Of a stretch of DNA of 64,000 bases, positions 15,045 to 64,000 are shown in pieces. A model generated the notes under the pieces. That model made no database searches. It worked only from the letters and a program-made list of their open reading frames with translations, and was not told where the DNA came from. The DNA is from Squalus acanthias (Eukaryota). The position numbers and the translations under genes are program-made. The stretch spans positions 20,088,001-20,152,000 of the forward strand of contig CM059447.1 of assembly GCA_030390025.1 (NCBI GenBank), given 5' to 3'. The first letter of the stretch is position 1, and every line of letters begins with the position of its first letter.

Positions 15045-16402
15045 ATTATTGGAAAGAATTCTGAAGGACAGGATAAATCTTCATTTAGAAAGACACGGAT
15101 TAATCAAGGATAGTCAGACTGGATTTGTTAAGGGAAGGTCGTGTCTGACAAACTTGATTGAATTTTTTTAACAGGTAACAAGGAGGATAGATGAGGGTAG
15201 TGTGTTTGATGTAGTGTATATGGACTATAGCAAGGCTTTTGATAAGGTTCCACATGGCAGACTGGTCACGAAGTTAAAAGCCCATGGGATCCAGGGCAAA
15301 GTGTCAAGTTGGATTCAAAACTGGCTCGGAGGCAGGAAGCAGAGGGTAATGGCTGATGGGTGTTTTTGTGACAGGAAGGCTGTTTCCAGTGGGGTTCCTC
15401 AGGGCTCAGTACTAGGTCCCTTGCTTTTTGTGGTATATATCAATGATCTAGACTTAATCATACCCCCTATATTCAAGAAGTTTGCAGATGATACTAAAAT
15501 CGGCTGTGTGGTTGATACTGAAGAAGGAAGCTGTAGACTGCAGGAAGATATCAATAAATTGGTCAGGTGGGCAGAACAGTAGTAAATGGAATTCAATCCG
15601 GAGAAGTGTGAGGTAATACATTTGGGGAGGGCTAACAAGGAAAGGGAATACACATTAAATGGTAGGACACTGAGTAGTGTAGAGGAACAAAGGGACCTTG
15701 GAGTGCATGTCCACAGATCCCTGAAGGTAGCAGGCCAGGTAGATAAGGTAGTTAAGAAGGCATACGGAATGGTTGCCATTATTAGCCGTGGCATAGAATA
15801 CAAGAGCAGGGGGGTTATGCTTCAACTGTATAAAACACTAGTTAGGCCTCAGCTAGAGTACTGCGTGCAGTTCTGGTCACCACATTACAGGAAAGATGTG
15901 ATTGCACTAGAGAGGGTACAGAGGAGATTTACAAGGATGTTGCCGGGAGTAGAGAATCTTAGCTATGACGAAAGACTGGATAGGCTGGGTTTGTTTTCCT
16001 TGGAACAGAGGAGATGGGGGGAGACCTTATTGAGGTGTATAAAATTATGAGGGGCCTCGATAAAATGGATAGAAAGGACCTATTTCCCTTAGCAGAGGGG
16101 TCAAAAACCAGGGGGCACAGATTTAAAGTAGTTGGTGGAAGGTTTAAGAGGGGATTTGAGGGGAAATTTCTTCACCCAGAGGGTTGAGGGGGTCTGGAAC
16201 TCACTGCCTGAAAGGGTGGTAGAGGCAGAAACCCTAACCACATTTAAAAAGTACTTGGATGTGCACTTGGGATGCTGTAACCTGCAGGGCTACGGACCTA
16301 GAGCTGGGAAGTGGGATTAAGCTGGATGGCTCTTTGTTGGCCGGCGCGGACACGATGGGCCGAAATGGCCTCCTTCCGTTCTGTAACTTTCTATGATTCT
16401 AT
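15045..16402 (+). mobile_element. 5'-truncated CR1 LINE (RT domain to 3' end), disrupted
   Basis: ORFs 15202-15582 (YMDYSKAFDKVPH..GVPQGSVLGPLLF..KFADD), 15586-16050, 16132-16320; tail ttctatgattcta; same subfamily as 143-1191. Confidence 0.96.
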
Positions 16403-49934: not shown

Positions 49935-50915
49935 GCAACTGGGAGAGATACAAAAAACAACAAAAGGTGACAAAACAGATCGTAAGAGCTACAAAAAGGG
50001 TGTATGAAAATAAACTTGCAAGGGATATCAAAATCAACACCATTTTTTTTACAGTTATATTAGGAAAAAGGGGGTGGTCAGGAGCAAAGTGGGCCCCTTA
50101 AAAACTGAGAACGGTGATATTGTAAATGAAAATAAGGAAATGGTGGACATGTTGAATAATTACTTTGCCTCAGTATTTACAGTAGTGGAAGAGGATACCA
50201 TGCCGGACATCCCAAGGAAACTAATATTGAATCATAGAGACGGGGACTCACCAAAATTAACGTCAGCAAAATAGCAGTAATGAAGAAAATAATGGCACTA
50301 AAGAGTGACAAATCCCCAGGACCAGATGGTTTCCATCCCAGGGTTTTAAAGGAAGTAGATGAGCACATTGCAGATGCCCTATCATCTTCCAAAGATCTCT
50401 CGATTCGGGAACTGTTCCTTTAGATTGGAAAATTGCGCATGGTAACTCTGCTATTTAAGAAAAGTGAGAGAGGGAAACCAGGGAATTATAGACCAGTTAG
50501 CCTAACATCTGTTGTCGGGAAATTACTAGAGTCTATAACTAAGGATAGAGTGACTGAACACCTCGAAAATTTTCAGCTGATCAGAGAGAGCCAGCATGGA
50601 TTTGTAAAGGGTAGGTCATGCCTGACAAACCTGATTGAATTTTTTGAAGAGGTGATGAAAATAGTGGACAGGGAAATGTCTACAGATTTTATTGAAGTTA
50701 GGAAACACTTCTACACGCAAAGGGTGGTAGAAGTCTAGAACTCTCTTCCGCAAACGGCAATTGATGCTCGGTCAATTGTTAATTTTACATCTTAGATTTC
50801 TGTTAACCAAAGGCATTAAGGGATATGAGGCAATGGCAGGTACATGGAGTTAGGTCACAGATCAGCCATGAGCTCACTGAAAGGTGGAACAGGCTCGAGG
50901 GGCTCAATGGCCTCA
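49935..50915 (+). mobile_element. CR1 LINE fragment with internal deletion of the RT core
   Basis: KSPGPDG.HPRVLKE, PGNYRPVSLTSVVGKLLE, SQHGFVKGRSCLTNLIEFFEEV then direct jump to EVRKHFYTQRVVEV near 50693; 3' UTR follows. Confidence 0.92.
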
Positions 50916-53379: not shown

Positions 53380-53890
53380 ACGATTTTCCAGAATCATTTT
53401 TTTTCAGTCATATTTCAAGAGGAAGAACGAAAGGTCCACATTCATTCTTGTAGCTAGAAATGCTCCAATAGTCACTCTGCATATCAATCTGATAGTGACA
53501 ATATTTACCATAATGCAGTTCTTGAGCTTTTTAAATAAGCTTTTCCAGGTGCACGACAAATACAACATCAAAGGAAGACGCCATCTTATTCTCCCAGTTT
53601 CTCCTTCTCCATTGAATCTACTCTGATGACTTTACCTTCTGCACCAGAGTCTCTGAAATTACCTAATTTTTCCTCCGTTGTGTTTCCCCTCTGCTATGTT
53701 CGCATCTGTTCCTTTTCCCATGCTTCTGCCCTGACCTTCTCTCACAACCTCCATAGTGCTCTGATGCTTGCTACTTTAACTCCCCCTCTGCCTTATCTGT
53801 CATTATGCGGAGATGCCGGCGTTGGACTGGGGTGGACAAAAATGAGAAGTCGCACAACACCAGGTTATAGTCCAACAGATTTATTTAAAA

Positions 53891-53932
53891 TTACAAGCTT
53901 TCGGAGCTATCGATCGCCCCTTCTTCAGGTAA
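53891..53932 (-). ncRNA. minimal hammerhead ribozyme motif (antisense copy)
   Basis: Exact reverse complement of 54510-54551. Confidence 0.75.
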
Positions 53933-54509
53933 AGTTACTATGAGTGAATCTACAAAAATTCACAGAATATAAACACAGAAAAAATGCAGAGATACAATCT
54001 TTCCTTACATCAAAGACACACCAAGAGCACAGCCAAGACAATGAGATGTGTCCCAGGGGGTCCAACGTGTCAAAACCTGCTGTCTGCATATCCTCTCCAT
54101 TTGGGTTTGTTTTTTGTGTTTGTTTTTTAAAAAACTGGAAAGACAGACAACGATGTCAAGTCACGGCCTTCGAGATACACGACAACGCAAAATCATCGAG
54201 CAGAAACTGATAGCCAAGTTCCGCACTCATGAGGACGGCCTCAATAGGGATATCGGGTTCATGTCACGCTACAGAACGTGACTTGACATCGTTGTCTGTC
54301 TTTCCAGTTTTTTAAAAAACAAACACAAAAAACAAACCGAAATGGAGAGGATATGCAGACAGCAGGTTTTGACACGTTGGACCCCCTGGGACACATCTCA
54401 TTGTCTTGGCTGTGCTCTTGGTGTGTCTTTGATGTAAGGAAAGATTGTATCTCTGCATTTTTTCTGTGTTTATATTCTGTGAATTTTTGTAGATTCACTC
54501 ATAGTAACT

Positions 54510-54551
54510 TTACCTGAAGAAGGGGCGATCGATAGCTCCGAAAGCTTGTAA
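54510..54551 (+). ncRNA. minimal type I hammerhead ribozyme motif
   Basis: TTAC-CTGAAGA-A-GGGGC(gatcgata)GCTCC-GAAA-GCTT-GTAA; palindromic AGCT stem III, TTAC/GTAA stem I. Confidence 0.78.
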
Positions 54552-55202
54552 TTTTAAATAAATCTGTTGGACTATAACCTGGTGTTGTGCGACTTCTCAT
54601 TTTTATCTGTCATTGACCTCCTACAGTGTTCCAAATAAGCTCAATTCAAGCCTTACGAACAATATCACACCTTTCTCCTGGGACCTTGCAACCTTTAGGT
54701 CTGAACATTGACCTCAGGAACTTCAGCTGTATCCTCATTTACAAACCGGTTTTAATTCCACACCTGAACCCCTGGTTTTCCATCTCTCCCATGTTCCACA
54801 TCTTTAGTTACATCCATAGCCTTTGTTTCTTTAATATTTTAATGCTTCTGTCCATTATTCTACTGAAATGATCTGTTAAATTATTGCATTCATGATTCCT
54901 CTTTCTTTTTTAAAAAAAAAATATATTTACATTTCCTCCTCCCTTTTTCTGATTGTATTAATATGTCTGTCTGTCTCCTATTTCTCAGCACTGAAGAAGA
55001 GTCTGCACCTGGAATGAAAACTTGTCCATTCTCTCCACAGATGCTAACTGACCCGCTGTGTGTTTCCAGCATTTTCTGTTTTTGTTCCGGAAAAAAATTG
55101 GACTTTGGTTTTGCAAATGAGAAAGAGCTTTCACTAGATCACCACAGATGCACAGCTGAAATTTGGTATATTTACACAACAGTGCACAGTGTTTCAGTGT
55201 AA

Positions 55203-62278: not shown

Positions 62279-63275
62279 TATAGGTCTGAATATTATGTAT
62301 TATAAATCATCACATCACTCCTGGCCAAGAAGGAATAACACTCACCTGCAGGAGACACTATAAACTTAGTGAATATTGCTGGTAGGTGTTGCTCTGTAAA
62401 ACAATTGCAACAGTCACCTGGAGGAATGCCCTTGGGCGGGGAGAGAACTTTTCCAAAGTTGACAGGTTACCTTAGAATCGCTCAAGTGATGCCTTGCAGG
62501 TCTGTGGCATGAGAGGTCGTCTTAATAAAACATTTTCAAATGGAAGTTAGTGCCTCTAACTGGATAACATAGCCAAGTGCAACATGCTAACGTAAAGAAT
62601 CTAATAAATCAGTTCTATTTTACAGAAAGTTTCGGAGCATTTGGTCCTTGGCCTTCGCCGTTACCCCCAAGATAAATCTGATTGTGACCAAGTAATCTGG
62701 CCAGGGACCTCCTTCTCTCACACAGGGGCATAGCAATCTAGCATGCCAATGTATTATATTACCATACAATCATAATGCAACGTTGATATCTAAACAGCAC
62801 CAGATTCATTTGGGATGGGTCTTTCCCACTGAACAAATACATTCCAAGATGCACCTTCAAGAAACTACTACTACCATTTTATTCACTGAGGCAATGTGAG
62901 CATTGCTGGCAGCTCTCAAGACTGCAAAAAGACAAAATGTATTTCCTCTCCATTATTGCTTTCGTGGGTGGTGCTCATTTTCGTAATTATTTTCCTGTAT
63001 ATTGTATTTTCTGTGCTGTAGCGTTTATATCTATGTCTATTTTTGTGTCATTTTGGTGGGTATGCCTCATTTCTGATCATGGTGTGGGATAAACATTCAT
63101 TATCTGGTTGTTTACTGAGAGATGCACGCATTTTGTTCCTGGCAGTTCAGCGGTCCTGGCAGTTTAATGGTGATATGGCTACAAGTCACTGAAGCCGACT
63201 GGAACAAATTCCCACTTTGACCATCACCATGTTAAATTCCAATTTCAGATTTAGAAGATGTGAGGCTTACAAGTG

Positions 63276-63353
63276 AAGGGGCAGCAGCTCCGAAAGCTTG
63301 TGATTTCAAATAAAACTGTTGGACTATAACCTGGTGTTGTGCGACTTCTCGCA
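63276..63353 (+). mobile_element. about 80-bp Penelope family B 3' end insertion
   Basis: Matches 54520-54598 (gctccgaaagcttg..gttggactataacctggtgttgtgcgacttctc); 9-bp TSD TTACAAGTG at 63267-63275 and 63354-63362. Confidence 0.88.
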
Positions 63354-64000
63354 TTACAAGTGTGGCATTGGTGTGAAGCAGTTTCTCTTTATACTTTTGC
63401 TATTGTCATAGTGTAAATCTGGAATCAGAGGCCGACGTGACTCTGGAGTGAAGTGGAATGAGACTCCATAGAGGAGGGAATCGACCTGATATTTGGATCT
63501 CCAGAATCCAAAAACATCTATCCAAAAATCCAATTGCTCATCTGTTACGTAGATAGTTATCAGCTAACAGTGCTCTTCAGTGATTTCAGTGACAGACAGA
63601 AAAGCAAAGAAAAGTTGCCTGTGGTAAATAGCTCTTATTATTAATGGAAGGAGCTGCCTGCAGTAACCAGCACACACTCACATTACTTAAATTAATGATT
63701 ACCCCACAAGTTGAGCAAGTTGCAGTGCGCAGCACAGTTACTTATTACTGACTCTATGGTTTACTCTTTGCAATGAACTGGATGAAATGAGAGCATCATT
63801 TCTTATTACAGAAATTAAGGGTTACTTCTCGCTGTAAATACTCTACAGTAACAGTATAGATTTGTATTACTGTCATCATTTGTTACTCCATAGAGTGAGT
63901 TGTCTGAGTAAACAATATAACTTCTTATTGCAGAACTTTTAGGAGTTTTTTCTTGCAAGTCAAAATTTCTGCACTTAAAATATCACAAAAAACCTCCTGG

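Follow-up and report, generated by a model that had tools for sequence, protein, structure and literature searches.

In the 64,000-nucleotide stretch of the Squalus acanthias genome that we analyzed (the window, in whose coordinates all positions are given), we find an insertion that we read as a non-coding, doubly 5′-truncated, head-to-head copy of a young Neptune-like Penelope element lodged in an older element. We consider it reasonably probable (roughly 0.7) that it arose in one event, with both target nicks serving as primers. The insertion itself is real but ordinary, its layout having been published already, and its shape likely reflects the way in which the element integrates, not an inbuilt switch for silencing. 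What the family adds is a rule, comprising one tailed arm, a target duplication of about 12 bp and coupled breakpoints, which likely reflects priming at both target nicks.

The unit is bounded by a 12-bp target-site duplication (left copy 53793..53804, right copy 54603..54614), the first two bases of the right copy being equally assignable to the end of the right arm. Inside the left copy lie a 33-bp tail on the minus strand (53805..53837), which is found on the left arm only and in an intact element extends to the ORF start codon, and then the left arm itself (53838..54165, minus strand), a 5′-truncated copy holding the last 2 coding bases, the stop codon, the 3′ UTR and a hammerhead. A 2-bp CG overlap (54164..54165) joins the 5′ ends of the two copies at a junction unique in the genome and is followed by an unpaired loop of 111 bp (54166-54276) and by the right arm (54277..54604, plus strand), which has no tail; the entire plus-strand copy spans 54164-54604, includes the final 38 codons of the element ORF with its stop codon, encoding the end of its GIY-YIG endonuclease (54165..54281, plus strand), and makes the untailed arm the longer of the two. 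The arms described in the initial annotation as about 328 bp with one mismatch were recovered by inverted-repeat analysis as 328 bp each with a single mismatch (54103/54339), and the 12-bp duplication claimed there is present as well; the next-longest inverted repeat within 5 kb is 24 bp at 75%. A near-perfect inverted repeat of 328 bp is far beyond chance, yet common in its Penelope family. The same annotation noted that the inversion boundary coincides with the stop codon. The boundary does lie two bases upstream of the TGA at 54279-54281, but none of 96 other breakpoints falls within 6 nt of the stop, so the coincidence is one of chance and we rejected the stop codon as a breakpoint signal.

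The target is an older, decayed element of another Penelope-like family, 70-77% identical to its paralogues, of which one part lies to the left of the insertion (53589..53792, plus strand, start approximate) and another to the right (54615..55086, plus strand), the latter with the GIY-YIG end, the 3′ part and a decayed hammerhead-like core near 54991. The insertion interrupts the endonuclease region of this older family, whose paralogues carry the duplicated motif once. Elsewhere in the window, a related subfamily is represented at 63260-63355 by a solo 3′ end that has no tail, is truncated within the ribozyme and shows an apparent duplication of about 9 bp, and three reverse-transcriptase fragments of other retroelements lie at 728-1243, 15172-15579 and 50424-50735. 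A Pfam search of 127 stop-to-stop frames of at least 78 aa returned only these three fragments and no host-gene domain.

The identity of the element comes from the loop, whose 38-aa peptide (54165-54278) is identical at 38/38 positions to the C-terminus of an intact 892-aa ORF elsewhere in the same genome, consistent with the initial annotation of the loop as the C-terminus of a GIY-YIG protein. This ORF (L130:631-3306, minus strand) belongs to a partial-tandem element of a sister subfamily (L130, G000:C1:5494689-5501535); the copy in which it is uninterrupted is 99.7% identical to its tandem partner, which makes L130 a candidate source element of that subfamily. The ORF matches Pfam RVT_1 (E 2e-8), its homologues carry PF00078 (RT) together with PF01541 (GIY-YIG), and its best named matches are shark proteins at 80-94% identity. 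A Pfam search of the 38-aa peptide was empty, that of the full ORF made no GIY-YIG assignment, and at E≤0.01 the ORF had no match among solved structures. The endonuclease is recognized instead by motif, as a GIY-YIG domain of the CCHH type with two Cys between YLI (792) and YIG (805) and His at 820 and 836, alongside GLKF at 170 (GxKF type), DKG at 296 and YIDD at 532; DKG, GxKF and the CCHH type are in the motif list given for EN+ Penelope-like elements (PMC8557442, accessible text). One ORF combining RT with a C-terminal GIY-YIG endonuclease in the parent of the sister subfamily, the partial tandem at L130, and the tail, inversion and duplication in the window and at 76 other sites all agree with EN+ Penelope-like structure, and the reading of the locus as a Penelope-like insertion with inverted ends is upheld. 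At aa 753 the ORF has a CX4CxxC linker; a CX2-5CxxC linker between RT and EN is described for Neptune and Nematis and as absent from Penelope and Poseidon (PMC8557442, accessible text). We therefore call the family Neptune-like (Neptune or Nematis clade), an assignment made on the linker motif, and have dropped the label Poseidon.

Each arm also carries a minimal type I hammerhead motif (54510..54551, plus strand; 53891..53932, minus strand), as had been annotated. The plus-strand motif has a 4-bp stem I, a core at 54514-54520, an extra A, a 5-bp stem II, GAAA and a self-complementary helix III without a loop, with a predicted cut after 54547. The CUGANGA and GAAA cores, the extra base at position 9.1, stems I and II and the palindromic helix III are those of the minimal type I, and the helix III duplex is predicted at only -2.7 kcal/mol. 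Because an Rfam search of the region matched no hammerhead at E≤10, giving only chance or generic hairpin matches, the identification rests on motif and covariation. Among 74 sister-subfamily motifs, in which the CUGANGA/GAAA core is imposed by the search pattern itself, core position 7 varies (C 37, G 20, A 17), position 9.1 is A in all 74, helix III is GCTT in 70/74, and stem II pairing is kept across 19 variants with differing loops, which suggests that selection acted in the source elements, not at the window locus. The architecture follows that of metazoan minimal hammerheads as described in the accessible text of PMC4209133, including the 4-bp stem I, the extra base before stem II, the G-C closing pair and the palindromic helix III, and differs from it in the 5-bp stem II and 8-nt loop of the window subfamily. 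Opposite-strand pairs 100-700 bp apart have already been published in the same source, and the pair in the window is spaced by about 620 bp. Minimal hammerheads did not cleave as monomers there and cleaved at low levels as dimers, while the ribozyme of an Anolis element requires protein, and insertion in vitro proceeds without this ribozyme (PMC11167929, accessible text). There is a single sense copy of the ribozyme on either strand of the fold-back, so a dimer cannot form in cis. Dimer cleavage by minimal hammerheads is said to have been reported in a 2017 paper. The two hammerheads would appear to be passengers from the 3′ end of the element.

Fold-backs of this kind are the usual product of the family, each with its own junction. 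The exact hammerhead has 837 copies in the genome (G000), and a 3′ 44-mer common to the sister subfamilies has 19,279. We drew sample 1 from all 74 sites found in the first 100 of the 837 ribozyme matches, and a ribozyme-independent sample 2 from the first 60 of 75 sites found in the first 100 of the 19,279 44-mer matches; both samples are biased towards two-anchor sites and were taken from the beginning of the largest contigs. In sample 1, 48/74 sites are fold-backs with both arms visible to BLAST, not counting partner matches that we assigned to separate insertions or a different subfamily (L048, L049, L074 and the second pair of L041) or two loci with second arms of 13-14 bp by eye (L035, L103). 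In sample 2, 29/60 sites were automatically classified as fold-backs; the duplication was not found at 9/60, and the likely fold-backs L122, L125 and L135 escaped the automatic classification. With one site common to both samples, the distinct fold-backs number 76. By rough extrapolation from these biased samples, there are likely thousands of them genome-wide.

Exactly one arm is tailed in 76/76 distinct fold-backs, none having two tails or no tail; in one of them, the untailed arm stops about 40 nt short. The duplication measures 11-14 bp in 45/48 fold-backs of sample 1, with a mode of 12. Within the same sample the untailed arm reaches farther 5′ in 24/48, the tailed arm in 17/48 and the two are equal in 7/48, which means that neither can always have been copied from its partner. 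The two 5′ breakpoints nevertheless lie within 20 nt of each other in 27/48, where shuffling leads one to expect 8 and none of 5000 shuffles reaches 27, and this holds for 12/23 of the long-armed fold-backs against 2.4 expected; several of the near-symmetric junctions sit at local palindromes. The arms agree at 133 of 134 subfamily-diagnostic positions, which are linked and not independent, compared with 87 expected under random pairing, and some variants are private to the two arms of a fold-back. In sample 2 the hammerhead variant is common to both arms in 19/21 pairs; in 2/21 (L155, L159), the arms derive from different subfamilies by their ribozyme variants, inside a single target duplication.

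A few further observations concern where the arms end. That 5′ ends usually fall at the ribozyme cut is unsupported, since by eye only 2/60 sites of the ribozyme-independent sample 2 (L134, L136) end at the predicted position. Many junctions of this sample, at L121, L129, L133, L144, L150, L154, L155 and L159, instead lie just upstream of hammerhead stem I and not at the cut site, with anchor gaps of 83-116 bp in 7/23 pairs. Second arms of about 13-60 bp, mostly tail only, occur at L035, L038, L103, L147, L166, L168 and L171, and may represent second primings that halted almost immediately. Two fold-backs are interrupted, L042 (G000:C1:57611071-57620875) in its tailed arm by about 6.2 kb of inserted DNA containing a retrovirus-like ORF, and L088 by about 305 bp.

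Read from these end products, the mechanism would run as follows. The endonuclease would nick both target strands about 12 bp apart; copying would begin from one nick at the end of the tail, next to the ORF ATG (in L130 the tail runs up to the ATG of the 892-aa ORF), and from the other nick about 37 nt further in; both cDNAs would stop early and be joined, in the window at the 2-bp overlap. The 3′ ends of both arms point outward and border a single duplication, the arrangement that priming of a cDNA at each nick should leave. According to the accessible text of PMC11167929, an Anolis protein of the Poseidon clade cuts and extends both strands in vitro, uses two start sites bracketing the tail and is predicted to be a dimer; that text draws no link between the two start sites and inverted copies. 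We infer one nick per start site. The concordance of the arms favours one RNA or one source locus. The idea that one RNA always serves both arms is weakened by the two mixed-subfamily pairs, which show that two templates are sometimes needed; either pattern could have been blurred by gene conversion. A stricter version, in which the nicks are about 12 bp apart, the starts lie at the tail end and about 37 nt inside and are never the same twice, and the cDNAs often end together and usually come from the same source, is one that we hold tentatively, at slightly less than even odds. If true, this geometry would point to an asymmetric dimer doing two-strand priming, possibly with a trailing polymerase that displaces the leading cDNA on one RNA, and it would explain the Penelope inverted copy and one-sided tail.

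The main competitor to dual priming is self-priming, in which one cDNA or antisense template folds back and is copied, as has been proposed for Adineta on an antisense template (PMC3846280, accessible text). We regard it as unlikely overall. The 27/48 near-symmetric junctions, several at local palindromes, and the subfamily alleles nearly always common to both arms speak for it, and these junctions and the arm concordance are as compatible with fold-back copying or subsequent gene conversion as with dual priming. However, an untailed arm cannot template a tailed one, and the untailed arm is longer by >20 nt in 12/21 asymmetric fold-backs as well as longer in the window; the two mixed-subfamily pairs and the single target duplication abutted by both outer ends also count against it. 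Simple snap-back is possible for the symmetric class.

Dual priming finds partial parallels in known systems. In inserts formed by L1 twin priming, both target nicks prime, and the inverted insert lies within a duplication with a microhomology junction; the two L1 pieces are non-overlapping, whereas both arms in the window copy the same 3′ region. An inverted truncated copy with a one-sided tail has been described for Penelope-like elements (PMC8557442; PMC3846280; PMC8969392, all in their accessible text). The EN+ elements of PMC8557442 and Pen2a_Av of Adineta (PMC3846280) share with the insertion in the window the head-to-head inverted ends, a tail at one end (30-40 bp in EN+ elements) that reaches the ORF start region, and one duplication around the whole unit. 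The insertion differs from them in consisting of two short stumps with no direct tandem pLTR, and the duplication is about 12 bp in the window family versus 8-10 bp in Adineta; the accessible parts of these two papers give no counts of tails and breakpoints across a family. As far as the accessible text of PMC11167929 goes, the Anolis Poseidon element PAc resembles the shark family in its two preferred 3′ ends bracketing the tail, its hammerhead upstream and its 5′ ends rarely at the ribozyme cut site. Unlike Poseidon, the shark family has the CX4CxxC linker, and its ORF starts about 90 nt past the ribozyme, not inside it; its outer genomic ends overlap the target duplication by 1.8-1.9 nt on average, a figure that comes without a shuffled control, while PAc primed without homology. 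Non-LTR retrozymes have a type I hammerhead of Penelope origin but are direct tandem repeats with ribozymes on one strand (bioRxiv 10.64898/2026.07.22.740005, accessible text), in contrast to the insertion in the window with its inverted arms and one ribozyme per strand; this inverted arrangement, with close hammerhead pairs head-to-head in 26/26 among the first 100 ribozyme matches, rules out a retrozyme identity. We found neither a one-tail rule nor dual priming for Penelope-like elements in the accessible literature searched, and the inverted and tailed products are still called unexplained in the accessible text of PMC8557442.

A different reading takes up the possible self-silencing switch, siRNA source or ADAR substrate of the initial annotation and supposes that the locus has been retained for such a function. 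The hairpin that the annotation envisaged does follow from folding: a read-through RNA is predicted to form 327 long-range pairs at -637.7 kcal/mol, with a cost of 78.5 kcal/mol for forcing the ribozyme to form, and siRNAs do arise from inverted Penelope copies in transgenic Drosophila (PMC3681739, accessible text). Yet the same folding is expected from any long inverted repeat, the siRNAs in that system silence poorly, and minimal hammerheads cleave weakly and not as monomers (PMC4209133). The junction is unique, the layout is the default of the family, fold-backs making up about half or more of the sampled sites, and the site is lineage-specific and within another decayed element. We thus consider a selected switch quite improbable; any read-through RNA would bury the hammerheads in a 328-bp duplex as a side effect. 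As a putative siRNA source or ADAR substrate, the locus is possible, and thousands of such hairpins together could supply double-stranded RNA. One presumed-RNA contig set leaves most of the unique left flank uncovered, which is not evidence against transcription, and such contigs cannot reveal small RNAs, edits or strand. A non-autonomous palindromic mini-element moving as a unit, MITE-like in its terminal inverted repeats and duplication, is scarcely credible, as the centre junction occurs once in 3.7 Gb (≤1 mismatch), where MITEs have many copies of the same internal structure, and breakpoints vary by site.

The age of the insertion was overstated by the initial annotation, which called it very recent. 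The divergence between arms is 0.32%, the fifth lowest of 23 long-armed fold-backs whose family mean is 1.33%; at that mean, ≤1 mismatch has a probability of 0.07, and one mismatch in 328 is compatible with 0.008-1.7%. Contigs from two studies of organism A (X1, X5) pass from unique flank into the element at both ends, unbranched, reaching into it by 27 and 16 letters at the left end and by 22 flank-excluded letters at the right end, below the tool's 31-letter rule. X1 differs from the window by 2 letters and one gap in 386, and one of the two samples has a different flank haplotype. The X1 and X5 contigs show no sign of an empty allele, with the limits that contigs drop rare alleles and that one run may be the assembly's own sample. 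In the related organisms G and H, a contig of 821 bp each (X20, X21) aligns to the right flank over 355 letters, with 15 differences and 7 gaps, before departing from the window at 54606; the expected empty-site length between the same contig ends is exactly 821 bp, and these organisms likely lack the insertion. The insertion is thus probably lineage-specific and not a fresh polymorphism. Relative to flank depth, the summed contig depth of the 3′ end (54575-54602) in organism A exceeds that in G and H several hundredfold; this hints at a burst confined to the lineage, with contig depth being a poor measure of copies. An assembly artefact is hardly conceivable: none of the contigs listed bridges the centre and the end contigs reach only 16-27 letters into the element, below the 31-letter rule, but the 12-bp duplication, the asymmetric tail, the arm mismatch, both ends in two runs and the 821-bp contigs stand against it.

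The single locus matters little in itself; it is the family that documents Penelope integration, cleanly and in abundance. Its one-tail rule, 12-bp stagger and coupled breakpoints make sharp predictions for the existing in vitro system, and the intact 892-aa ORF in this genome permits those predictions to be tested.
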